This document shows positions 10,840 through 24,000 of a stretch of 24,000 nt of DNA, one piece after another. The stretch's first letter is position 1, and each line of letters begins with the position of its first letter. Location of the stretch: positions 695,048 to 719,047 of the forward strand of contig JBEKFP010000001.1 in the NCBI GenBank assembly GCA_050013255.1. Reading direction: 5' to 3'. The DNA is from Candidatus Bathyarchaeia archaeon. Lineage in GTDB: Archaea; Thermoproteota; Bathyarchaeia; 40CM-2-53-6. The position numbers and the translations under genes are program-made. Under the pieces are notes generated by a model. It ran no database searches. It saw only the letters and a program-made list of their open reading frames with translations, and was not told the DNA's origin.

Positions 10840-10841
10840 CG

Positions 10842-11069
10842 GTGCACCGAAAGATACTCAGGGCAAAACAATTTAGAGGCAAGCGGGTGAGTTTGGGTGG
10901 GGTGTTTGAATTAGCATCGCCTAGGGAAAGCCACGATAAAGTGCTCCAGCTTCTGGAGCAGCATACTAAGTGGTTTTCAGAATCAATTCCGCTGATTGCA
11001 TCGGAGAACGTTCCCAGCCCCGCGGTTCGCGAAGCTATAGTTTCAGACTTCGGGAATCGCTACGCGGAA
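10842..11069 (+). CDS. glyA: Serine hydroxymethyltransferase, exon 1 (ends ...SDFGNRYAE)
   Basis: IPLIASENVPSPAVREAIVSDFGNRYAE aligns to the E. coli GlyA segment [28 protein letters not shown]. An in-frame TAG follows at 11070. The start is uncertain: GTG 10842 or GTG 10887. Confidence 0.85.
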
Positions 11070-11103
11070 TAGGCTTAAGCCGATCAGGCTTAGGCCTCCG
11101 TAG
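11070..11103 (+). other. Candidate bulge-helix-bulge (BHB) intron inside the glyA mRNA, 34 nt
   Basis: TAGGCTTAAGCCGATCAGGCTTAGGCCTCCGTAG. Central 4-bp helix 11064-11067 / 11098-11101. 3-nt bulges at 11068-11070 and 11102-11104. An 11-bp intron hairpin 11071-11081 / 11087-11097 with loop GAUCA. Removing these 34 nt joins RYAE to GWVGERVYAGC in frame. Confidence 0.7.
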
Positions 11104-12264
11104 GGATGGGTTGGGGAACGCGTATACGCGGGCTGCGTATACATAGACCAAGTTGAGAGGCTCTGCATAGACCTAGCAAAGGACCTATTCCGGGCCGAAT
11201 TCGCGGACGTTAGGCCAGTCTCTGGGGTTTGCGCAAACCTCGTGGTTTACACCACTTTCACAAACCCCGGCGACCGCATGCTCGCTTTAGCTATACCAAA
11301 CGGCGGCCACATCTCGAGTGGGCGCAAAGATTTCTCGGGAACTGCAGGCTCGGTCCACGGCTTGGAAGTAGAATACTTTCCCTTCGACCGTCATGAAATG
11401 AACATCGACGTCGACAAGGCGAAGCAGAAAATCGAGAAGATGGTCAAGGAGGAGAATAAGCCGCCCAAACTTGGGATGTTTGGTGCAAGCCTCTTCCTCT
11501 TCCCCCAACCCCTGAAGGAGCTAGCTGAGTCATTACATAATGTTGGTGCGACCGTCGCCTACGACGCGGCACATGTTGCGGGGCTCATTGCGGGAGGAAT
11601 CTTCCAAGACCCACTGAGGGAAGGTGCCGACGTAGTATGCCTGAGCACCCACAAAACGCTCTTCGGCCCGCAGGGAGGGGCGGTACTCTCCTTCGAGAAA
11701 TACGCGGAGCAAATCAAGAAGGCAACGTTTCCGTCAAACACGAGCAACCACCACCTGCATCACCTAGCTGGGAAAGCGGTTGCTTTCGCGGAAATGTTAG
11801 AGTTCGGAAAACAGTACGCTAAGCAAGTTGTGGCTAATGCCAAAGCCCTGGGTCAAGCGTTGCATGAACGAGGCCTTAACCTTCTGGGCGAGCACAAGGG
11901 TTTCACTGAGTCGCATCAAATCGCAGTCGACGTATCCAAGTATGGCTTGGGGGGAGACATGGAGAGAGCACTTGAAAGCGCCAACATAATCGTCAACCGC
12001 CAACTATTACCCGGGGACATTCAAGCGGGAAGGCACTACCAAAACCCAGGCGGCATCCGCATCGGCACCTCGGAAATCACCAGGATCGGGATGAAGGAGA
12101 ACCAAATGGTCGAAGTGGCTGAGCTAATCAAGAGAATCGTCATCGACAAGCAGGACCCTAAGAAAGTGAAGGCCGATGTGCTAGAGTTTAGGAAAGATTT
12201 CCAGAAGGTTCACTACTGCTTCGAGAGCGCAAAGAAAGCCTACGAATACATCAAAGTACGGTAA
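11104..12264 (+). CDS. glyA: Serine hydroxymethyltransferase, exon 2 (frame open from 11104; track lists only 11242..12264)
   Basis: The frame reads GWVGERVYAGCVYIDQVERLCIDLAKDLFRAEFADVRPVSGVCANLVVY..., colinear with E. coli [49 protein letters not shown]. The PLP-lysine block STHKTLFGPQGG is present. Confidence 0.88.
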   Translation, partial: GWVGERVYAGCVYIDQVERLCIDLAKDLFRAEFADVRPVSGVCANLVVYTTFTNPGDRMLALAIPNGGHISSGRKDFSGTAGSVHGLEVEYFPFDRHEMNIDVDKAKQKIEKMVKEENKPPKLGMFGASLFLFPQPLKELAESLHNVGATVAYDAAHVAGLIAGGIFQDPLREGADVVCLSTHKTLFGPQGGAVLSFEKYAEQIKKATFPSNTSNHHLHHLAGKAVAFAEMLEFGKQYAKQVVANAKALGQALHERGLNLLGEHKGFTESHQIAVDVSKYGLGGDMERALESANIIVNRQLLPGDIQAGRHYQNPGGIRIGTSEITRIGMKENQMVEVAELIKRIVIDKQDPKKVKADVLEFRKDFQKVHYCFESAKKAYEYIKVR

Positions 12265-12278
12265 TTGGTGGTTCGAGG

Positions 12279-13061
12279 ATAATTACGAATCCTAAGGTCA
12301 CCGTCATAACTGGAGCGAGTAGCGGCATAGGTGCCGCACTAGCGAAAGAGCTGGGGGCCGGGGGCCACCGGCTAGTTCTCGGAGCCCGCCGAGAAAAGGA
12401 ACTGAAAAATGTCGCAGCACATGCTGGAACTGAAGCAATCCCAGTCGTCACGGATGTTACTCGCCGGCGGGACGTCGAACATTTACGCGATGTTGCAATT
12501 GAGAAATTCGGTCACGTTGATGTTTGGGTGAACAATGCGGGCCGCGGCTCTGGGAAGATTGTGATGGAGTTGACGGAGGCGGAATTGGATGAGATGATTG
12601 CTGTTAACCTGAAATCCGTTTACTATGGGATGCAGGCCATCGTTCCGCATTTTCAGCAGAGGGGCGAGGGACACCTCATCAACGTATCCTCCTTCCTGGG
12701 AAGGGTTCCTTTGGCAACCTACCGGTCCGCCTACAATGCGGCTAAGGCGGGGGCGAATATGCTAACCGCAAATCTGCGCATGGACCTGAGGACGAAATAT
12801 CCACGGATACATGTTTCATTAGTTTTGGCGGGGTTCGTTGATACCGATTTTCACAAAGTCGCAGCCACCCCTTTCCCCGTAAAGGCGGGAACCCGCGTCG
12901 GCGAAGCGGTGGTTCAATCCGCTGAAGAGGTCGCCGAGCAGATCGCATCCCTCATAGAGCATCCAGTCGCGGAACTCTACACCAACCCAGGCCTCAGAGA
13001 TCTTACGGTGCGATACTATCAAGACGTAGGCGCATTCGAAGAACGAATGGGCCAAAGATAG
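12279..13061 (+). CDS. Short-chain dehydrogenase/reductase (SDR); 5' end lacks a canonical start codon in frame
   Basis: The frame reads IITNPKVTVITGASSGIGAALAKEL... (TGxxxGxG), NNAG at the track start 12528, and a catalytic S...YNAAK. There is no ATG/GTG/TTG in this frame between the stop at 12189 and 12528. Confidence 0.8.
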   Translation: MITNPKVTVITGASSGIGAALAKELGAGGHRLVLGARREKELKNVAAHAGTEAIPVVTDVTRRRDVEHLRDVAIEKFGHVDVWVNNAGRGSGKIVMELTEAELDEMIAVNLKSVYYGMQAIVPHFQQRGEGHLINVSSFLGRVPLATYRSAYNAAKAGANMLTANLRMDLRTKYPRIHVSLVLAGFVDTDFHKVAATPFPVKAGTRVGEAVVQSAEEVAEQIASLIEHPVAELYTNPGLRDLTVRYYQDVGAFEERMGQR

Positions 13062-13691: not shown

Positions 13692-15263
13692 CTAGAACAG
13701 TTTGTCTTTGTCCATGAGCACTTCGCCGTCTGAGTATCTCTGGCCGTACATTTTCCTGATGATGAGAAAACGCCTGGTCCTCTCCGCTAGTGGTTTTTCG
13801 AATATTTCAATTACTCCGTCGAAGAAGTCGATGATACTTTGCGTTTCCTCCTTTGTTGTGGTCAAGGGGTTGAGGGTCGCTATGATCGTGAAACCCTCAG
13901 CCTTGCGTTTTCCGACAAAATCCGTTAACCACCTCCGGGTTAGGACGGACTTATGGCGAAGCAACAAATCAGATAAAATATCTATGATCATAATCCGCTT
14001 GGTGGCCTTTTCCTTTGCGATAACATCCTTGAGGGCTAGAGCCAATGATATGTTGGCGTCGTTAAAGTTCTCAAAGCTCGGTATCTTCAACAGGTTCGGG
14101 CCATGGATGATTCTGTCCGCCTGCGGGGATAAGGCGTAGAACCCGTTCGGGTACCTAGACGTCAGGTCCTCGGTCCTGCCGATATCATTCGAGAGAAAAA
14201 TCGCTAACTTTCCAGATGATAAGGCTGAGTTAACGACTCTCCTCAGGAGCAGGTCCCTCTCATCATAAGATGGAGAGACGATGACGACACCGAATTTTTC
14301 AGGGATGCCCCCACCCAACGCCTTGTCCAAGTCCGCGTAACCCGTCGAGACGATTGTTGGTGCTTGAACGACCTTTGGCGGGACGATGGTCTTTGCGGGA
14401 ACGATGGGTTGCGGTGAAACGGTGTCTTTCCTAGGTACTTGAATCACTGCTGGGCGTGGTGGATGCTCCTCTATCCTCCTTTCCTCTTTCAAGGTGGCTC
14501 GTGGGTGTTCCTCTTTCAATTTGGCGGCAAGAGATGGCTTTCTTCTTCTCGCGACAACCAAGACACCGGCGACTATCGCGACCGCAGCAGCTACGAGCAA
14601 ACCTAAGCTCCCAAACGGAAGACCGACCTGGCCAACTTGGGGAATCGTTGATGTCAAAATCAATAACTTGGTCGTGGATTCAGTAGCATTACCGTATGAC
14701 GCAACCAACGTTGTGACGGCTGTCCGTATTGACCAGGCGCCCGCAACGAATCCAGGACTAAAATTGAACATCCATGCAATGAATTGTCCGGCCTCAGGGG
14801 CAACCCAGTCTCCCTGACCGGCGACACCTTTTTGGTGGTACAGCGCTTGGAATTGGAAGGTGGGCGCTGTGCCTTCACTGTTACAGCCGGCATTATCGGC
14901 CTTAGCAAAAGCGGTTGTGATGTAGAAATCAGACGGAAGAGTGCCAAAATTAGTCCAATTTACATGAAAACTCTGCGCCGCGATTGCATTAAACTCGATT
15001 TTTTGATAGGGTTTTGATAGGGCTCCAGATCCGCAGGTACTGAGGTCGAACTCAATCGGTCTGGAACCTTGACTACCGAGATAGCCAGACGTGGTCTCTG
15101 TAACGTAACTGGTTGTAGCAGCGTAGGTGTACAGTACCGTGGTCGTGGCTTGGGTTGTAGAGGTTACGTAACCCTGGCCCGACACCTTTGGCGGCATAGC
15201 ACTGAGTGCTGGAAGCAGAGCTAGAATCAGCAGAAGAGCGAAAGCGATGCGGCACCAGTGCAT
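13692..15263 (-). CDS. Receptor-like membrane protein: signal peptide, Thr-rich extracellular domain, 1 TM, cytoplasmic KaiC/RecA-like domain with degenerate Walker A
   Basis: 523 aa. MHWCRIAFALLLILALLPALSA is the signal peptide and GLLVAAAVAIVAGVLVVARRRK the TM helix. The C-terminus VSTGYADLDKALGGGIPEKFGVVIVSPSYDERDLLL...IMIIDILSDLL...TRRWL...ATLNP...FFDGVIEI...IIRKMYGQ is colinear with KaiC-like ATPases (STGIxxLDxxLGGGxPxGxxxLxxGxxGxGKT), but SPSYDERD replaces GxxGxGKT. Confidence 0.7.
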   Translation of the reverse strand: MHWCRIAFALLLILALLPALSAMPPKVSGQGYVTSTTQATTTVLYTYAATTSYVTETTSGYLGSQGSRPIEFDLSTCGSGALSKPYQKIEFNAIAAQSFHVNWTNFGTLPSDFYITTAFAKADNAGCNSEGTAPTFQFQALYHQKGVAGQGDWVAPEAGQFIAWMFNFSPGFVAGAWSIRTAVTTLVASYGNATESTTKLLILTSTIPQVGQVGLPFGSLGLLVAAAVAIVAGVLVVARRRKPSLAAKLKEEHPRATLKEERRIEEHPPRPAVIQVPRKDTVSPQPIVPAKTIVPPKVVQAPTIVSTGYADLDKALGGGIPEKFGVVIVSPSYDERDLLLRRVVNSALSSGKLAIFLSNDIGRTEDLTSRYPNGFYALSPQADRIIHGPNLLKIPSFENFNDANISLALALKDVIAKEKATKRIMIIDILSDLLLRHKSVLTRRWLTDFVGKRKAEGFTIIATLNPLTTTKEETQSIIDFFDGVIEIFEKPLAERTRRFLIIRKMYGQRYSDGEVLMDKDKLF

Positions 15264-15325
15264 GAAGACGCCTTGCTATCGATTCGCATTTAATTCTTGG
15301 GACAGACGAGACGTCAGGCTATAAC

Positions 15326-15988
15326 TCATGGCATGTTCTTGGTTCTTTCCGAGTTGGGCATTCGGACCTTCAGGATTTTGAATCCTAATTGGACTGCTGG
15401 GCCTATGGCGAGGGCGGATACTAGCGTTCCGAGCCATGCGGGCCCCCCTAGCAACCAACCGACCACGACCACGCTTATCTCGATTATTGTGCGCGCGATT
15501 CGCACGCTAGTTTTCCCGAGGCGTGACAGCGCGAGCATCAAAGTGTCCCTCGGCCCAGCCCCAGCGTTCACTCCAATGTAGATCGCGGTCGCAAATCCCA
15601 TGATCAAAACGCCGAGGAGCAGGTATCCCAACTGAACGAGGACGGAACCGGGAACAAGCGGAACGTAGGGCCTCAGGACGTCGACCCATACGCCGATGAA
15701 GATCATGTTCGCGACCGTCCCCCAACCCAACGGCTCTTTGAGGGCTACGTCGACGAGAATTATGATGAACGCGACGCCAATGTTGGATTCGCCAAGCGTG
15801 ATCGGTAAATGGTACGTTAACGCCATTTGGAGAACGTCCCAGGGGTCCAAGCCTAGGCTCGCCTGAACCATCACATCAATCGCCAACCCGAAGAGCAGAA
15901 AACCAATTTGAATAACGAAGAAGTCCCAGGCGAACCGCCTCCAACCCACCCAACTGAACTTGAAGAACCTACTGTTCATGGTTCGCAA
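15326..15988 (-). CDS. YczE-like integral membrane protein (COG2364-type)
   Basis: 220 aa. GLDPWDVLQMAL..ITLGE and GAGPRDTLMLALSRLGKTSVRIARTIIEISVVVVGWLLGGPAWLGTLVSALAIGPAVQ match the B. subtilis YczE pattern as I remember it. ATG 15979 is an alternative start. Confidence 0.7.
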   Translation of the reverse strand: MRTMNSRFFKFSWVGWRRFAWDFFVIQIGFLLFGLAIDVMVQASLGLDPWDVLQMALTYHLPITLGESNIGVAFIIILVDVALKEPLGWGTVANMIFIGVWVDVLRPYVPLVPGSVLVQLGYLLLGVLIMGFATAIYIGVNAGAGPRDTLMLALSRLGKTSVRIARTIIEISVVVVGWLLGGPAWLGTLVSALAIGPAVQLGFKILKVRMPNSERTKNMP

Positions 15989-16049
15989 GTCTGAACACCT
16001 GCCCGCAGAGTCTCCATTCTTCCATGGCGCATTGTCCGTTAGGTTTCGT

Positions 16050-16631
16050 ATGGGGGCGCCTTCCAGCTGTGTTCTTCATATAGATGTGCCAGTCTTGGTG
16101 GGAGCGGTTCCCTTGGGTTCCCGCATCTTGCTCTGCATCTGTTTGATTGCAGGAGTACTGCTCATGATGATTTCAAGTTCCAATGTCGCGGCGCAAAGCT
16201 GCCAAAAGGTGACCGTTTCATCCAATTATCCTGAGCAGGCCGCTCCGAAAGAACAGGTACAAGTGACTACGACCATAGCCGGCTCATGTACCTCGGGCCC
16301 CGAAGACTACTTCTCGGTGAGAGTGGATGTTACGGATCGTGTTTCCAAGGCTCTACTCTCATCGAACAGCGGTCCGATAGGCTACAGTACCACCAATTTC
16401 TCAGTGAACGTACAGAATTCAGTGACAACGCCAACAGGCAATCTGACGTGGCTAATAGAAATCGATAGTTACCTGATTATAGACGCGCAGGAATCCCATT
16501 TGAATTCAACAACAGGCAGGATTCAAGTTGGCAGCACGCCCATACCTGAATTCCAGGCCGCCCAACCGATCGTACTCCTACTAGCATTAGCCGCAACATT
16601 AAGCCTGAACCGACGGAAACTTCCCAAATAA
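16050..16631 (+). CDS. Secreted protein with C-terminal PEF-CTERM-type (archaeosortase) sorting signal
   Basis: ATG 16050 is preferred because track start 15960 would overlap the minus-strand permease gene. The signal peptide is ..ILLCICLIAGVLLMMISSSNVAAQS. The extreme C-terminus PIPEFQAAQPIVLLLALAATLSLNRRKLPK has a PEF motif, a hydrophobic helix and a basic cluster. Confidence 0.65.
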   Translation: MGAPSSCVLHIDVPVLVGAVPLGSRILLCICLIAGVLLMMISSSNVAAQSCQKVTVSSNYPEQAAPKEQVQVTTTIAGSCTSGPEDYFSVRVDVTDRVSKALLSSNSGPIGYSTTNFSVNVQNSVTTPTGNLTWLIEIDSYLIIDAQESHLNSTTGRIQVGSTPIPEFQAAQPIVLLLALAATLSLNRRKLPK

Positions 16632-16859
16632 CGCGGGGGGCCAACTTTTCCGCGGACTGTGCGCCTTGAATCGCTTCCTCACATGCCCTGCCTTCCTGAG
16701 GAAGAATAAGGCCGAATCCCAAATTCGATCAGCTCGTTTTCTTACCTAAACGAACTGGCAGAAAACATCTGTGCGCACCATTAGCCCCGCACACACTATC
16801 CTAACACAAACGAAAATTTCTTTAGAGAAGATTCACGATAGTTACTCGAAGATGATGAA

Positions 16860-17497
16860 ATGGCACCTAATCCTTTGAGGATAGGACAATCGAACTTCGG
16901 AAGTTCTGTGACGCAGCTGACTTCAAGCATCGCTGGATATCCTGCCCTGGAGGTAGATAACCCGAGCCCCAAGAGTGGTCAGGCCATCCTGGGATTATCC
17001 ACAGCAAAAAGCGGAGACAACACTGGTGTGTATGGGCAGTCCGACTCGACCGGTGGAACAGGAATTCTTGGAATTGCGATCTCAGCAAGCGGCCTGAGTT
17101 TTGGCGTACGGGGTGAGGCATTTTCCACCGAGGCATAGCGGTCCGTGGGGTTGCAAGCGGAAAAACTGGCGCGAATTTCGGCGTTCATGGTGCAGCCCTG
17201 TCAAAGAAAGGGGCTGGCGTTTTGGCAGAGCACATGAAGAAAGGAGACGCTCTGCACTGCGAAGGTCACGCGATGCCGACCACTGACAACAAGTTCAATC
17301 TAGGTGATTCGAAGAGGCGTTGGAGACACCTTCACGCGAAAACCATAACGTCCGGCGACCTCGTATTCGATAACGGTGTAAAAGCCACCGAGGACGGAAA
17401 CGGACTTGCCTTCACCAATGCGAAAGGAACAAAGATCGCGCGATTGGACTCCAAGGGTAATCTACACATTAAGGGAAGAGTAATCAAAGACCTCTAG
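16860..17497 (+). pseudogene. Gly-rich repeat, tail-fibre-like protein split by a 1-nt frameshift near 17129..17138
   Basis: Frame 0 (16860..17138) ends ...GLSFGVRGEAFSTEA*. Frame 2 is open from 17117 and continues the same Gly-rich repeat pattern (GIAVRGVASGKTGANFGVHGAALSKKGAGV...) into track ORF 17222..17497. One extra G after 17133 gives ...TEGIAVRGVAS.... Confidence 0.6.
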
Positions 17498-17599
17498 CAC
17501 TCAAGGTCAATTCGCCTAAGATCCCGACGCTAACATTCAGTTGAATCAAACCAAAACGAAGTAGTCGAGAGCGCAACGTAACCTCCCGTATTTTTCTAG

Positions 17600-17695
17600 C
17601 GCGCACACACTGAATTTCACGCAGACCAATCGGTCGTACTCCTCCTAGCCTTAACCGCAATATTGGGCCTGTACCGACGGCAGCTTCACAACTGA
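17600..17695 (+). pseudogene. Orphan PEF-CTERM-like tail fragment (remnant of a paralogue of 16050..16631)
   Basis: It reads RAHTEFHADQSVVLLLALTAILGLYRRQLHN* directly after an in-frame TAG (17597..17599), with no start codon. Positions 17612..17695 match 16548..16631 at 66 of 84 positions by hand count. Confidence 0.6.
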
Positions 17696-17843
17696 CGCGG
17701 GGAAGATGGCGTTTGTCCGTATCTCGTTCTTCAGGTGGTTTGACGATTCGCTGCTGCGAGTAGCTTGGCAAGAAAGTGGGTAGAAAAGGGCGAGGAGTTC
17801 GCTTGATTCTACTAGGCCTTAGGGCGTTCGAAAGACACATTAC

Positions 17844-17874
17844 TTTATACCTGCAAATTCCGAAACACGTTTCG
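17844..17874 (+). promoter_or_regulatory. TATA-like box plus inverted repeat upstream of the 17896 gene
   Basis: TTTATA at 17844..17849 lies 47 nt before the ATG. CGAAAC-AC-GTTTCG (17861..17874) is a perfect 6-nt-arm inverted repeat positioned where a transcription start or operator would sit. Confidence 0.3.
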
Positions 17875-17895
17875 AACACTATCGGCGCAGGCAGA

Positions 17896-19293
17896 ATGGA
17901 TAAGTTAAAACCTAGAGCATTTGTTTCGTTTCTTTTGCTTCTAGCAATATGCATTTCATTATTGTCTATACCAAACGCGAACAGTCAATCAGCCGCGGTA
18001 ACGACCACGACTACTATTGAGCAGCCTCCCTCGGGTCAGTGTGCCGAAATTTCGCTTGCTTTCTCAGCGCGAGCAGGCCAGGAATTAGCGGGAACATTTT
18101 CGTCGGATGCATCAATCAGTTTCTACATTCTATCCCCGGCAGATTTTGATGCCATCAGAAATCCAAATTGCAGTCTTCCATCAAGCGCAAGACCACTTTA
18201 CAGCCAAACGAACTCAGTCGGCCATGATAATCCATACCGCACCCTAGTCTTCCCGTCCAACGGAACTTATTACATCGTTTTCGTCCTCCTAAACAGCAGC
18301 CAGGCTGAGCTCGCCAGTGGTTTTGCAACTGTTGAAGTGAGCTTCCCAGCTTCCACAATTTTCATCACGACCGAAGCCTCTTACACGATAAGCTCATCTA
18401 GCATAATCGTAAGGACAACTCAAAGCACAACTGAAAGCGCGACGGTTGCGTCCACCGGCCCATCTTTCGGAACGTTCGGACTGATCGGATTGGTTGTTGC
18501 GGTGGGTCTGATAGCTTCAGTCATGGTGTTCATGAAGCGAGGAAAGTCACAGACAGGGCAGAAAGTGGTCCTGAAACAGGAGACTGTAAAGAAAGAAGTT
18601 AGGCCTGAAAGCCCGCAGCCGAAACCGGGCCCGGCGGGACAGAATATCTCCACAGGCTATCCCGAACTAGATACCATGTTGGCCGGAGGCCTTCCGCTCG
18701 GGCTTAGCATAGTTCTGACGGGCCCACCCTGCGATGAAAAAAACCTGATTCTCAGCCGTTTCTTGGAAACGAATCTGATATCCGGCCGCGAATGCATTTT
18801 CATTTCAACCTCACTTGACCGCGTTCGCGAAATGCTTTCGAAACACAAGAACCTCCATGTAATCCTCTGCAACCCGCAAGCTGAAACCATCGCTGCTCCC
18901 TATCCGGAAGTCGTCAAAATCAAAACCGTGGACAGCCTGATTCAGATCAATTTGGAATATGACGTCGCGGCGGGTGGTTTGAGTTCAGGAAAATCAGCAA
19001 TTCTTTGCTTGGAGATCTTGGATGACGTGCTTCTTGAGCACCACGCGGCAACGAGGAGATGGCTCATGGACATTCTGGGGAGGGGCAAGGGAATTCAAAT
19101 GACCTGCTTGGCGACGCTTAATCCGGCAATGCACTCCACACAGGAATTACAAGCCATTCTGGAAACATTCGACGGCCACATCGACCTGTACGAGGCCGCG
19201 GTCCAAGGGCGACCAAAACTAATCCAAGTCAGAAAGCTTGGGGGACGAACGTTCCTTGACAGCGAAGTACGCGTAGAGAAAGACCGAATATGA
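17896..19293 (+). CDS. Paralogous receptor-like membrane protein with degenerate KaiC/RecA-like cytoplasmic domain
   Basis: ATG 17896 gives the signal peptide MDKLKPRAFVSFLLLLAICISLLSIPNANSQS (the track start 17776 runs through the orphan-tail region). The TM helix is FGLIGLVVAVGLIASVMVFMKRGK. The C-terminus ISTGYPELDTMLAGGLPLGLSIVLTGPPCDEKNLIL...TRRWL..ATLNP..FDGHIDL..VRKLGG has GPPCDEKN in place of GPPGxGKT. Confidence 0.7.
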   Translation: MDKLKPRAFVSFLLLLAICISLLSIPNANSQSAAVTTTTTIEQPPSGQCAEISLAFSARAGQELAGTFSSDASISFYILSPADFDAIRNPNCSLPSSARPLYSQTNSVGHDNPYRTLVFPSNGTYYIVFVLLNSSQAELASGFATVEVSFPASTIFITTEASYTISSSSIIVRTTQSTTESATVASTGPSFGTFGLIGLVVAVGLIASVMVFMKRGKSQTGQKVVLKQETVKKEVRPESPQPKPGPAGQNISTGYPELDTMLAGGLPLGLSIVLTGPPCDEKNLILSRFLETNLISGRECIFISTSLDRVREMLSKHKNLHVILCNPQAETIAAPYPEVVKIKTVDSLIQINLEYDVAAGGLSSGKSAILCLEILDDVLLEHHAATRRWLMDILGRGKGIQMTCLATLNPAMHSTQELQAILETFDGHIDLYEAAVQGRPKLIQVRKLGGRTFLDSEVRVEKDRI

Positions 19294-19382
19294 AAACTAA
19301 CCAGCACACGCCCTTCGAAGCCGAGCAACCAATCTCAACTGTACATACCGCCTTTGTTATTGCAATATTGCAGATCTAATTC

Positions 19383-19470: not shown

Positions 19471-20799
19471 CTAAGTCGTAGCCTCTGATGCAATCCGTGC
19501 ATCAGTAGATGACGTAAGCTTTGCTGTACCTGAATGCGTTGTGAGAAATACGATCTTGTCGGTACCATCGCGACGGCGCACAACGTGCTTCCTTGATTCC
19601 AACTTACCCAACAATCTGCTCATGGCCCATCCATCGACATCAAATTGGCTAATGAGCTCACTTTGTTTTTGTGGACCGTTTTCCTGCAAATACATTATTA
19701 CTTGGACGGCTAACGTCCTGAGTTCACTATGTTTTGGAAAGAGCCCATGGAACTCCAATTCCATGTCTTCAGCCAATCTATCTAACGGAACTGACTTCTT
19801 GACAGTCTCCGTATCAATTTCCTGAGATCGGTCTGGCCTTTCCCAGAAATCCAAGGTTAGCTGAATATATCTGAGAAATCTTCTGAAGATCCCTCGACTC
19901 ATGCGCGCAAGCGTGAGAAGCGCGTCCTCGGAGAACGGGTAAGTTGTCTCGAATTCGAGCCGATAGGCGTCAACCATTTTTTCAGGATTCATGGGTCTGA
20001 GTTCAAACTGCCTCATCTTGTCCAGAAAATAGTGGTCTCGAAACATCTCCTTTTGGATAGCTACAACGATTGTTGCTGTGCTTCCTGCGCCAACGAGGTT
20101 GTTCCAAAACCAGTAAATGCCCTCGAAATCGCTATCCATCCGCCGTTTGTCTGTTTTCGAATAATCCGACGTGTCGATAAGAATGACGTGCGAGCTTAGA
20201 AGCGTCTTCAACCAAGTGTCACGTCGTAGCTTCTCAGTGGCAGCCTTCCCAATCATCCTCTCCGCCCATAGTATGCCAGAAATCCCCTTTTCAATCTGCA
20301 TCAGTCTGTCGACAACGTATCGTTGAACGCCTTCCTGGAACTCGAGGAACCTATAGAAATCTGCCCCGTTCATCGTGTCGGAACAACTTTGAAGCTCCCC
20401 CAACAAAGCCGATAAGTATCGGGGAAGAAATTCGTCGGTCGCTTCATGAGTGAAGTTCAGAAGACTCGAAAAAAGTTCCTTCTCATTACGCCACTTGAAG
20501 ATGACCCTCGACGAGTCCAATGAAAATGGTATGCCTGCAAAAAGCGCCTTAAGGGCGGTACTCTTCCCCACCCCTTGCTGCCCAACGAGACCAAACAACC
20601 CACGTCTACCCGAAGCGAATTCACGAGCCATGCTCTCCAGAACGTCGGGAACAACGTAGGAATAACGAAGAGAATCTGGATCGCGAGTTTCACCGGCAAG
20701 CTGACTAGCCCAGTATCGAATTCTATCCACAGGAACGAGCTTCCTCAAATCGACCGCCAAATTCCTCGGCGAACACTCAAGCACAGTCGAGAATATCAC
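19471..20799 (-). CDS. Divergent AAA+ ATPase with C-terminal winged helix (Orc1/Cdc6-like architecture)
   Basis: 442 aa with a GTG start. Motifs: Walker A GLVGQQGVGKST, Walker B SHVILIDTSDY, a lid-like FSEDALLTLARMSRGIFRRFLRYIQ, and a C-terminal wHTH LRTLAVQVIMYLQENGPQKQSELISQFDVDGWAMSRLLGKLESRKHVVRRRDG. The pre-P-loop LRYSYVVPDVL echoes LRHDYMPSHL of the chromosomal Cdc6 in this window. Confidence 0.65.
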   Translation of the reverse strand: MIFSTVLECSPRNLAVDLRKLVPVDRIRYWASQLAGETRDPDSLRYSYVVPDVLESMAREFASGRRGLFGLVGQQGVGKSTALKALFAGIPFSLDSSRVIFKWRNEKELFSSLLNFTHEATDEFLPRYLSALLGELQSCSDTMNGADFYRFLEFQEGVQRYVVDRLMQIEKGISGILWAERMIGKAATEKLRRDTWLKTLLSSHVILIDTSDYSKTDKRRMDSDFEGIYWFWNNLVGAGSTATIVVAIQKEMFRDHYFLDKMRQFELRPMNPEKMVDAYRLEFETTYPFSEDALLTLARMSRGIFRRFLRYIQLTLDFWERPDRSQEIDTETVKKSVPLDRLAEDMELEFHGLFPKHSELRTLAVQVIMYLQENGPQKQSELISQFDVDGWAMSRLLGKLESRKHVVRRRDGTDKIVFLTTHSGTAKLTSSTDARIASEATT

Positions 20800-21777: not shown

Positions 21778-24000
21778 ATGGAGAGCAAAGAAATAGTTCC
21801 CAAGTCATATCATTTCACAGATCCAACTCAAGAATGGATCTACAAGAAACTGCTACTTCTAGTAGGCCCTGGTCCAGCCTTATTCTATCAAGATGCTTGT
21901 TCCATCATGGCAGAGTCTATTGCTCTTCAATCAACAACCCACTTAGTGGGGCATCTCCTTCGCGAGATCGAGAGTGCGCTCCGGGATGTGTTGGAGCCGA
22001 TAGTGGTACATATCACTCCTGCGCACGATAAAGACGAATCTGCCAAACACAAGGCCGAGATACTCGCAATTCTTAGCTACTTGGACATACCGGACTCTGA
22101 TCCCATCGCAGTTGCGTGGATGAAGCTAGCCGGTAGAGGATCAGACTATGCTCTTCACGCGCGAGCCCATCGCAGAGATCTCTCAGCACCGCGTCCGATT
22201 GATCAGGACTTTGTTCGCTTTTGGGATGATACTCAGATGATCCTAAAAATTGTACTCGACAAATTTGAGACGCATTATGCGTCCGTATTTGACATCCTAG
22301 ACAAGACACTCGTTACGAGTAGTCCGAGTATTGCTGACATAAAACAACTCCGAGCGCATGTACCCAATAACATGGTCACATGGAGCTACTTTTTCGGCAG
22401 ACTTCAAAGCACAAAATGGCTGAGTCAGCTGAAACTGGCAGGATTCTTTGATGCTCCGCCTGATCCTCAACTTGATGACGAAAAGAAAACGATCAGGATG
22501 ATACTATGGCCTCAGTCACAATATTTGGCCAGGATAGCATCAGAGAGCCCAGTTGAGGTTGTTAAAATTATCCTCGATATACCAGAAACAGAGAATCTCT
22601 TTGTTCATTCTGACCTTGTTGACGCAGCTCTAGCGATGCCACCGGTCCTCGCAGCAGAATGGGCAAAGAAGGAAATAGACTGGATCGAGAAGCGCGATAG
22701 GATCAACTTCCTGTTACCACAGAAGCTAGGCGAGTTGATCGGACATCTGGCAAGAGGCAAACAAGCCGATGCAGCCCTTGAGCTAACCAGATCTTTGCTA
22801 GGCACATTCTCCTCGGAGGATGAGAGAAAAGGTATTTCTCCGTTGGAGCCACAAGCTCGACTTGATACATGGCATTACGCGCAAATCCTCCAGACGGCAG
22901 TTTTGGACCTTATAGCAGCAGCGGGAGAAAAAGCGCTCGTCCTGTTCTGCGAGCTCCTCGAATCGGCAATTCAGACGTATGTAAAAAGTAGCGGTCCTGA
23001 GGATTACTCCTATCTGTGGAGGCCAGCGGTCGAAGACAGTGAACAGAACCTTCTCTCAGATCCGAAGGAATTGTTGGTGTCCGCTGTTCGCGATTCAGCA
23101 TTTCAGATTATCAAAATGGACTTGATACGCCTGCCGGCGATTGTAGGTCAATTAGAGAAACGAAAATGGCTGATTTTCCAACGCATAGCTCTTCACCTAT
23201 TGCGGACATTTCCATCTGGCTATGATACTCTGATCGCAGAGTGGCTCGCAGATCAACTCAAGTTCGGTAACCTTGGCCTTTGGCATGAATACTCGCTACT
23301 TGCCCAAGATCATTTTGGTGACCTGTCCCTTGAGGACCAAGACAAGATCCTCAAATGGATTGGCGATGGCCCTGATGTCAAGAAATTCAATGCTATGGAA
23401 GGAAACCGCACAGGCAAGGCTCCATCTAAAGAAGAGATCGAGCATTATGTGAAGCGTTGGCGGTTGACATATTTAGCATCCATTCATAGTTCATTGCCAG
23501 AAAAGTGGATAACTCGTTACGATGAATTGAAGAAGGAGCTAGGCGAACCAGAACATCCGGAATTCTTGATATACAGTGGTGGGGGTTTCGGCCCTACAAG
23601 TCCAAAGAACGCCCAAGAATTGCAGTTGATGAGTGCCGCGGAAATCGTGAGTTTTTTGAAGACTTGGCATCCTAATGGCGGATTTCTTGCATCTTCTCCA
23701 GAGGGCCTTGGACGTGTATTGTCTGGAATTGTGTCTTCAAATCCAGCCCGTTTCGCGGAGGTAACTAACCTATTCCGAGAGATTGAACCAACCTACGTTC
23801 GGGCTTTACTCACAGGTCTCCGTGAAGCGGTTAAGCAGAAGCATTCCTTTGCTTGGGCTACAATTCTTGAGCTTTGCCAATGGGTAATGGAACAACCTCG
23901 CACCATTACGGATCGAAAGGATAATTTCGAGTCCGACATGGGTTGGGTATGGACGAGGAAGACTATCGCCGATCTGCTCTCCGCAGGTTTTGAAACTGGT
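21778..24000 (+). CDS. Large uncharacterised alpha-helical protein, first 741 codons (runs off the window end; absent from ORF track)
   Basis: ATG 21778 is preceded by GGAG and is the first start after the in-frame TAG at 21697. I translated all 741 codons by hand without a stop (MESKEIVPKSYHFTDPTQEWIYKKLLLLVGPGP ... ADLLSAGFETG). There is no P-loop. A Leu/Trp-rich helical repeat character runs throughout. The N-terminal ~190 aa contains R120-x6-H127 (RGSDYALH). Confidence 0.75.
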   Translation, partial: MESKEIVPKSYHFTDPTQEWIYKKLLLLVGPGPALFYQDACSIMAESIALQSTTHLVGHLLREIESALRDVLEPIVVHITPAHDKDESAKHKAEILAILSYLDIPDSDPIAVAWMKLAGRGSDYALHARAHRRDLSAPRPIDQDFVRFWDDTQMILKIVLDKFETHYASVFDILDKTLVTSSPSIADIKQLRAHVPNNMVTWSYFFGRLQSTKWLSQLKLAGFFDAPPDPQLDDEKKTIRMILWPQSQYLARIASESPVEVVKIILDIPETENLFVHSDLVDAALAMPPVLAAEWAKKEIDWIEKRDRINFLLPQKLGELIGHLARGKQADAALELTRSLLGTFSSEDERKGISPLEPQARLDTWHYAQILQTAVLDLIAAAGEKALVLFCELLESAIQTYVKSSGPEDYSYLWRPAVEDSEQNLLSDPKELLVSAVRDSAFQIIKMDLIRLPAIVGQLEKRKWLIFQRIALHLLRTFPSGYDTLIAEWLADQLKFGNLGLWHEYSLLAQDHFGDLSLEDQDKILKWIGDGPDVKKFNAMEGNRTGKAPSKEEIEHYVKRWRLTYLASIHSSLPEKWITRYDELKKELGEPEHPEFLIYSGGGFGPTSPKNAQELQLMSAAEIVSFLKTWHPNGGFLASSPEGLGRVLSGIVSSNPARFAEVTNLFREIEPTYVRALLTGLREAVKQKHSFAWATILELCQWVMEQPRTITDRKDNFESDMGWVWTRKTIADLLSAGFETG

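Follow-up and report, generated by a model that had tools for sequence, protein, structure and literature searches.

A pair of putative transmembrane receptors with inactivated KaiC-like domains in a genome of Candidatus Bathyarchaeia

ArlH (FlaH) is a KaiC-like single-domain protein that acts at the membrane, where it docks onto a second hexameric ATPase. Inactivated KaiC domains (iKaiC) are established archaeal signaling domains, according to Galperin (2018, PMC5847659), which cites Makarova (2017); known forms are DUF835 (PF05763), MEDS (PF14417), iKaiC-REC and HalOD1-iKaiC, for which a connection to a KaiC hub has been proposed. In bacteria, BcsE offers a precedent: its N-terminal domain is RecA-like and degenerate, and it still oligomerizes (PMC7439463). 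In this study, two proteins of Candidatus Bathyarchaeia archaeon (assembly GCA_050013255.1), here labeled A and B, were analyzed. They are encoded in a stretch of 24,000 nucleotides (contig JBEKFP010000001.1, positions 695,048 to 719,047 of the forward strand), referred to below as the window; positions of A, B and their neighbors are given in window coordinates (Table 1). The combined evidence supports the view that A and B are surface-exposed type-I membrane proteins with a cytoplasmic domain of RecA/KaiC fold. The motifs required for ATPase activity have been replaced in this domain.

A sequence-only reading of the window had described both open reading frames (ORFs) and the layout that they share, and on both counts it was borne out. 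The two proteins are paralogs (BLASTP E 1e-46, 29% identity over ~465 columns), and the start methionine of B at 17896 is shared with the start of its homologs. An AlphaFold2 (AF2) model of A, built on 64 homologs, had a mean predicted local distance difference test score (pLDDT) of 76.7, with values above 90 in both folded domains. In order, the model consists of an N-terminal hydrophobic helix, a long Thr-rich two-stranded stalk, a beta-sandwich, a transmembrane (TM) helix, a linker and an alpha/beta domain; the TM and signal-peptide assignments are those of hydropathy and the AF2 model. Basic residues (RRRK/KRGK in the two proteins) are located just past the TM helix, and the linker of A (residues 240-300) is Pro/Lys-rich and modeled as disordered, with pLDDT below 50. 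The two cysteines that had been noticed 42-49 residues apart around a (S/D)FYI(L/T) strand are present as C77/C127 in A and C49/C92 in B, with 49 and 42 residues in between and with the strand motifs DFYIT and SFYIL. The pair cysteines are retained in 47/64 and 45/64 homologs. Modeled on its own, the ectodomain of A gave a pLDDT of 83.7 and a generic beta-sandwich, for which Foldseek found weak likeness to CBM, GOLD and PPC/collagen-binding domains (TMt ~0.6, E ~1e-3). The attempt to deduce a specific ligand from the ectodomain fold was dropped, as these matches are generic beta-sandwiches.

The KaiC-like nature of the C-terminal domains, proposed earlier from motif order, was confirmed by Foldseek, which recovered the RecA-superfamily fold. 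Pfam KaiC (PF06745) was narrowly over its cut-off of 26.6 bits in both proteins (30.9 bits in A, 29.2 bits in B). With Foldseek, the C-terminal domain of A matched SSO2452 (2w0m) and PH0284 (2dr3) at E 5.5e-12 and TMt 0.72, as well as KaiC, and FlaH (4yds) at TMt 0.68. The family profile was aligned by hhalign to canonical KaiCs of the same genomes with 96% probability, and a phmmer alignment to 2w0m was consistent with the resulting motif mapping.

These alignments, to 2w0m and to canonical KaiC, place SPSYDERD of A and GPPCDEKN of B at the Walker A position, exactly as had been claimed, and revealed no intact P-loop. The change from GGPGTGKT to SPSYDERD in A replaces Lys by Arg and Thr by Asp. 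The catalytic Glu has also been lost, since canonical FDE/LDE is aligned by hhalign to SND-I in A. The Walker B Asp is retained (IIDILSD aligned to VIDSIS/VVDTL), and this residue, D428, is nearly invariant. In KaiC structures KMRG forms a trans-acting Lys/Arg finger (K-x-R-G). Among 150 global representatives, selected at 50% identity, the finger Arg was retained in only three, and a canonical Walker A (GxxxxGK[ST]) was found at the loop position in none (0/150). The loop S/A-P-x-x-D-E-x-D/E was present in all ~120 close homologs and in the 150 representatives. Conservation of the replacement loop across both sets argues for a selected new function and not for decay, and the alignments indicate that the motif SPxxDE[RK]D is under purifying selection. 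The domain probably neither binds nor hydrolyzes ATP.

An exhaustive phmmer search of 1.84 billion representatives returned only 397 clusters at E<=1e-3, of which 154 reached E<=1e-30, so the family is small. Of 201 genomes sampled from the class, 31 contain the domain, and the source names of homologs indicate Bathyarchaeia; among the genomes sampled from other classes of the same phylum, only weak matches (~1e-10) were seen. All such genome counts refer to samples of related genomes, which are not independent. The family appears to be restricted essentially to Bathyarchaeia among the Thermoproteota genomes sampled. In a census of the 150 representatives, 60 were type-I proteins with an ectodomain of at least 100 residues, 12 were other TM forms and 66 were cytoplasmic; PF06745 was detected at E<=1e-4 in 61/66 membrane and 65/66 cytoplasmic representatives. 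Most ectodomains have no Pfam match, and those that Pfam does identify include SBP_bac_5 (as in P0096), CBM96, Laminin_G_3, beta-propellers, BNR, clostripain peptidase and DUF2207_N. The cytoplasmic proteins are fused to TPR (24), AAA_16 (9), FHA, CBS, FIST or NYN domains, and further fusion partners are REC (P0185) and the winged helix-turn-helix (wHTH) domain HTH_45. Judged by their composition, these combinations form a typical sensor/scaffold/output set, which fits the combinatorial pattern of a signaling module.

The 2.46-Mb genome that contains the window encodes eight proteins with the dead-KaiC domain. Six are membrane proteins: A, B, C1:1126038 (with a B-like ectodomain), C1:342244, C1:330394 (with a DUF2207_N ectodomain) and the truncated C1:633639. 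The remaining two are cytoplasmic proteins that start with the domain and continue with either TPR or AAA_16/STAND and MalT-type TPR. The truncated gene (C1:633639-634382, minus strand; L015:6639-7382) starts at the TM helix, has short ORF fragments upstream and lies beside a GH130-like PEF-CTERM protein; it is probably a decayed receptor. KaiC/MEDS-like proteins of ~235-300 residues without a Walker A motif (C1:344464-345171, L013:7464-8171; C1:1355487-1357102, L017:9487-11102) lie next to C1:342244 (a membrane protein) and C1:1353056 (a TPR fusion), both members of the family, and more ORFs of this kind are dispersed in the genome. In another genome (G160, loci L055-L062), nine copies of the variant domain were found, mostly at the C-terminus of proteins of ~1310-1330 residues; these copies are a lineage-specific expansion. 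Pfam DUF835 and MEDS did not match A or B at E<=1. Against DUF7504, B scored 21.2 bits, under the cut-off of 27, and some paralogs pass (35.2 and 45.3 bits), so the relation to DUF7504 is borderline. A role in anti-phage defense was considered and dropped, as the PADLOC defense-protein models gave no match for A or B.

The sequence of B points to a composite origin. Its 5' half (17805-18689) is 69% identical in nucleotides and 60% in amino acids to the paralog C1:1126038 (L016 6958-7879), whereas the cytoplasmic domains of the two proteins share only 38.5% identity. The cytoplasmic domain of B is instead 88-90% identical to that of 4-TM-iKaiC proteins such as P0122, and its subtype is otherwise typical of 4-TM proteins of ~400 residues. 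At the nucleotide level, window positions 18675-19305 are 92% identical to a 4-TM gene of a relative at 80% identity (L026), and this identity begins only at ~18675. With a 5' half like C1:1126038 and a 3' half like 4-TM-iKaiC, B is a recent chimera that arose by recombination inside the conserved TGYxxLDxxLxGGLP motif. A resident 4-TM-iKaiC gene received a type-I ectodomain module in place of its 4-TM module, giving rise to B. A segmental duplication of small ORFs plus receptor, shared with the C1:1126038 locus, was considered and dropped; only the 5' half of B is common to the two loci, and the small ORFs are unrelated.

To look for partners, 47 loci around class-level matches were retrieved and scored by hidden Markov models for the variant and the canonical domain. 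A canonical KaiC of ~250 residues with an intact P-loop was present in the locus in all six evaluable cases of wHTH-dead-KaiC fusions, and one tandem-domain protein likewise has a canonical KaiC in its locus. The KaiCs of the wHTH-fusion loci are closest, at 41-47% identity, to C2:485096-485842 of the genome studied here. This gene adjoins P0189, which encodes a wHTH and KaiC-like protein whose loop is dead in a different form (SESSCGDE, KMPV). Genes of the P0189 type occur almost universally in the order to which the genome belongs. The pair formed by a wHTH-(dead KaiC) gene and a canonical KaiC gene is conserved across Bathyarchaeia (L028, L029, L030, L034, L042, L043, L045, and C2:483921-485842, L075, in the genome studied here), and the order of this genome uses a different dead subtype, that of P0189, in the wHTH pair.

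A membrane KaiC with an intact P-loop was also found. The gene C2:40756-42948 (minus strand; L107:6756-8948) encodes a type-I protein of 730 residues with a large ectodomain and a cytoplasmic KaiC with the P-loop GNSGSGKS, and it retains Walker A, catalytic Glu and Arg finger. It is located in a PEF-CTERM island together with a soluble KaiC and the only archaeosortase-like gene of the genome. In seven of seven further genomes (L108-L114) its orthologs lie directly beside a soluble KaiC of ~250 residues, with an archaeosortase-like gene at a distance of 0-6 kb. This membrane KaiC was detected in 46/51 sampled genomes of the order and in 2/149 sampled elsewhere in the class. The conserved pair is membrane KaiC plus soluble KaiC; adjacency of KaiC and archaeosortase as a conserved pair was dropped, because the two were within 1.5 kb in only 3/30 loci. 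Like A and B, the proteins of this family have a signal peptide, a large ectodomain, one TM helix and a cytoplasmic KaiC domain, and they occur in the same genomes. Unlike the dead family of A and B, which is patchy in distribution and the membrane members of which were without such a neighbor in the loci scored, they have canonical motifs, are near-universal in the order and are always found by a soluble KaiC. No significant pairwise similarity was detected between C2:40756-42948 and the domain of A, and a literature search on intact-P-loop membrane KaiC found no paper. The intact pair is a precedent for a membrane KaiC together with a soluble KaiC in the same genomes.

We read A and B, with a probability of about 0.55, as fast-evolving accessory sensors that span the membrane and signal by docking or oligomerization of the pseudo-KaiC domain toward partners of the KaiC family. 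One TM helix and a flexible linker connect an external binding module, carried on the Thr-rich stalk, with the KaiC/RecA-fold domain. In A and B this module is a disulfide-bearing beta-sandwich, and in relatives a solute-binding, lectin-like, CBM or propeller domain. The pseudo-KaiC domain would serve for docking or oligomerization through a head-to-tail RecA-type interface, and a ligand bound on the outside would change how it associates with itself or with KaiC-family proteins of the cytoplasm. The same genome offers as candidate partners its soluble KaiCs of canonical type (C1:690148-690912, C2:485096-485842 and C2:47796-48545) and P0189, the wHTH-iKaiC regulator adjoining KaiC C2:485096, by way of which the signal would reach transcription.

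Docking of the dead domains onto a soluble active KaiC had already been suggested by the sequence-only reading. The suggestion has indirect support from the wHTH fusions of the same domain and from the separate family of intact membrane KaiCs, both of which are found with a KaiC partner. Association at the level of the family thus makes docking to KaiC plausible, and A and B themselves may dock in this way. Several observations weigh against the sensor reading. A canonical KaiC neighbor was found in 0 of ~13 loci of membrane-type dead-family genes, so the partner is deduced only from other architectures. All-against-all clustering of 237 neighbor ORFs from 21 loci gave no recurrent neighbor family and only close-relative synteny. 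The fold match of the ectodomain is generic. In the same order, many genomes encode just one protein of the family, which can therefore do without a partner of its own kind; this also weakened receptor-to-STAND signaling via same-family contacts, which had been considered as a general mechanism.

A broader and more tentative interpretation, which we regard as less probable, is that Bathyarchaeia have a KaiC-based transmembrane signaling system functionally analogous to two-component systems. Interchangeable sensors (ectodomains, 4-TM bundles, FHA, CBS, FIST, REC, STAND/TPR) would be carried on a shared pseudo-KaiC domain that would co-assemble with KaiC rings and wHTH-pseudo-KaiC proteins. The conserved acidic SPxxDERD loop would take the place of the bound nucleotide at the subunit interface and would permit nucleotide-independent insertion into KaiC oligomers, with A and B as rapidly evolving input receptors of the system.

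Among the alternatives, the one that survives best, unlikely as it is, is that A and B are surface adhesins or anchors, with an ectodomain that binds glycans or proteins and a pseudo-KaiC domain that only clusters or anchors the protein and transmits no signal. The likeness of the ectodomain to CBM, PPC and GOLD binding modules fits this idea, as do the frequent surface proteins among the neighbors (PEF-CTERM, BNR, CarboxypepD_reg/MG2) and the lack of a conserved signaling neighbor in the loci compared. However, the same domain is fused to purely cytoplasmic signaling modules and to wHTH, where anchoring would be senseless, and the ~220 cytoplasmic residues are conserved more strongly than an anchor would need. 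It is somewhat less probable again that the proteins are membrane-tethered decoys, dead subunits that would enter or cap the hexamers of core KaiC (soluble or intact membrane KaiC) and titrate their activity without sensing a ligand of their own. As both Walker A and the Arg finger are lost, a mixed ring would be inactivated on either side of a dead subunit, and the near-universal occurrence of the core active systems in the order, next to a patchy, accessory dead family, would suit such a role. The diverse, shuffled ectodomains, solute-binding ones included, are hard to explain by decoys that do not sense.

The sequence-only reading had further proposed that A, B and the genes between them form one envelope sensing or adhesion module. 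Of the intervening elements that it had named, a YczE-like permease, a PEF-CTERM secreted protein and an orphan duplicate of the latter were recovered (Table 1); for the fiber-like protein, sought in the two small ORFs, no family matched. The arrangement is identical in the same species (100%). In a relative at 88% identity A and B are both kept and the PEF-CTERM gene abuts B (L025), but YczE is a remnant of 74 residues; in the relative at 80% identity the adjacency of YczE and A, which are on the same strand, is kept, but a frameshifted 4-TM-iKaiC gene occupies the B locus. Orthologs of A at 61% and 52% identity have unrelated neighbors. The direct junction of PEF-CTERM gene and B in L025 shows that 16632-17611 is an insertion and that the "orphan" 93-nt copy is the PEF 3' end in its original place. 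Both small ORFs (16860-17138 and 17222-17497) sit on this insertion. Enrichment of PEF-CTERM tails near family members was considered and found not convincing (3/237 ORFs versus 17/2714 in the genome). A conserved A-YczE-PEF-B module was dropped after comparison of neighborhoods at these five levels of identity and the clustering described above: the pair survives only in the 88% relative, and beyond it the neighbors differ. A functional module of this kind is improbable, and the synteny indicates that the A-B interval is a recent rearrangement hotspot and not a functional unit. Least probable of all is that the domain is still a nucleotide-binding enzyme with a non-canonical site. In favor of this, the domain retains its general fold and the Walker B Asp, and an Arg stands at the Walker A Lys position. 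Against it, the phosphate-binding loop contains three acidic residues, with Ser, Pro, Tyr and Glu in place of the P-loop glycines, and neither the catalytic Glu nor the Arg finger is left.

Table 1. Positions of A, B and associated features in the window
Feature	Position	Strand	Evidence and remarks
Protein A	13692..15263	-	523 aa; type-I membrane protein with C-terminal inactivated KaiC domain; at least 130 homologs
A cytoplasmic iKaiC domain	13695..14357	-	residues 303-523; Foldseek and hhalign
KMYG replacing KMRG Lys/Arg finger in A	13743..13754	-	residues 504-507
SPSYDERD at Walker A position of A	14253..14276	-	residues 330-337; alignments to 2w0m and canonical KaiC
A transmembrane helix	14547..14603	-	residues 221-239, RRRK after; AF2 model and hydropathy scan
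A ectodomain	14604..15197	-	~residues 23-220; Thr-rich two-stranded stalk and beta-sandwich; C77/C127 pair conserved
YczE/DUF6198-like membrane protein	15326..15988	-	62 nt upstream of A; NCBIfam 2.5e-49, under curated cut-off; Pfam DUF6198
PEF-CTERM-type secreted protein	16050..16631	+	ORF open from 15960; C-terminal PEF, hydrophobic stretch and basic tail, recognized by pattern only
Lineage-specific insertion with two small ORFs (16860-17138, 17222-17497)	16632..17611	+	93-nt repeat flanks; not in 88% relative
Orphan copy of PEF-CTERM 3' end	17610..17702	+	93 nt; 81% identical to 16546-16638; colinear with real PEF 3' end in L025
Protein B	17896..19293	+	465 aa; architecture as in A; chimeric origin
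B cytoplasmic iKaiC domain, different subtype	18640..19290	+	GPPCDEKN at 18721-18744
Approximate recombination junction	18675..18689	+	within TGYxxLDxxLxGGLP motif; 69% versus 92% identity windows

Some other features of the window were recorded. Tail-to-tail with B, at 19471-20799 (minus strand), lies a gene for a protein of 442 residues with the P-loop GQQGVGKST (weak AAA matches) and a C-terminal MarR-type wHTH; it is not beside B in the 88% relative. At the end of the window, 21778-24000, an ORF that runs past it (1134 residues in L019) matched Dsr1 of PADLOC at E 6.6e-36 over profile positions 305-839. This large protein has no Pfam match, and the N-terminal part of the Dsr1 model was not covered. 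As PIN-domain genes occur on this flank in the 88% relative, the flank looks like a variable island. On the other side of A, the ORF for serine hydroxymethyltransferase (glyA, 10840-12264) lacks ~90 N-terminal residues, which can be read upstream in another frame; this indicates a frameshift or a pseudogene. Independent assemblies likewise have the gene split. The frame of the adjacent short-chain dehydrogenase (12267-13061) is open for ~87 codons upstream of the first ATG/GTG/TTG, a region that includes the NAD-binding motif TGASSGIG; because this motif precedes the first start codon, the true start is non-canonical or has been miscalled.

Signal transduction in archaea is poorly understood, and the KaiC-hub hypothesis has been without identified membrane inputs. 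The family of A and B offers concrete candidates for such inputs, with recognizable ligand-binding modules among the outer domains and a conserved pseudo-ATPase inside, and the same pseudo-KaiC domain is also fused to DNA-binding regulators adjoining a real KaiC. The hypothesis thereby becomes testable with a few recombinant proteins. The family may further illustrate how a P-loop ATPase can turn into a protein-interaction module, its replaced loop being under strong selection. The intact-P-loop membrane KaiC, with its soluble KaiC near an archaeosortase, provides a second, independent entry point.

Compared with known systems, A and B share with SSO2452 (2w0m), PH0284 (2dr3) and cyanobacterial KaiC the fold and colinear motifs. 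Those proteins are soluble, and their Walker A, catalytic Glu and Arg finger are intact, whereas A and B are anchored in the membrane and lack all three. A resembles ArlH/FlaH (4yds, 4wia) in structure; however, ArlH is soluble and retains its Walker A, which in the membrane-anchored A and B has been replaced. The NCBIfam ArlH model gave 24 bits against a cut-off of 215, and no archaellum (arl) genes were found in the window. BcsE and the eukaryotic Elp4/5/6 ring (Pfam PAXNEB) are RecA/KaiC folds with a degenerate Walker A that have been reused for oligomerization or partner binding, and weak PAXNEB matches were seen in the A/B family. The lineages and contexts of these proteins are unrelated to those of A and B, and the analogy is one of mechanism only.

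The closest comparison is with iKaiC. As in iKaiC, a KaiC-superfamily domain with disrupted ATPase motifs is combined in the A/B family with signal-transduction domains (REC, wHTH, sensors). The sequence-only reading, which knew of no described system built on transmembrane pseudo-KaiC receptors, overstated the novelty, inactivated KaiC signaling domains being already established (PMC5847659); for membrane pseudo-KaiC receptors, as for the A/B family, our literature search, the reach of which did not extend to Makarova (2017), found no paper. Unlike the DUF835 and MEDS forms, the family of A and B is distinct in sequence and has its own SPxxDE[RK]D / KMYG signature. Unlike known iKaiC, it was nearly confined to Bathyarchaeia in the genomes searched, and its commonest form is a type-I receptor with a large ectodomain. 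What is new is a lineage-restricted family with its own replacement motif, dominated by type-I receptors with diverse ectodomains, in which module swapping is documented.

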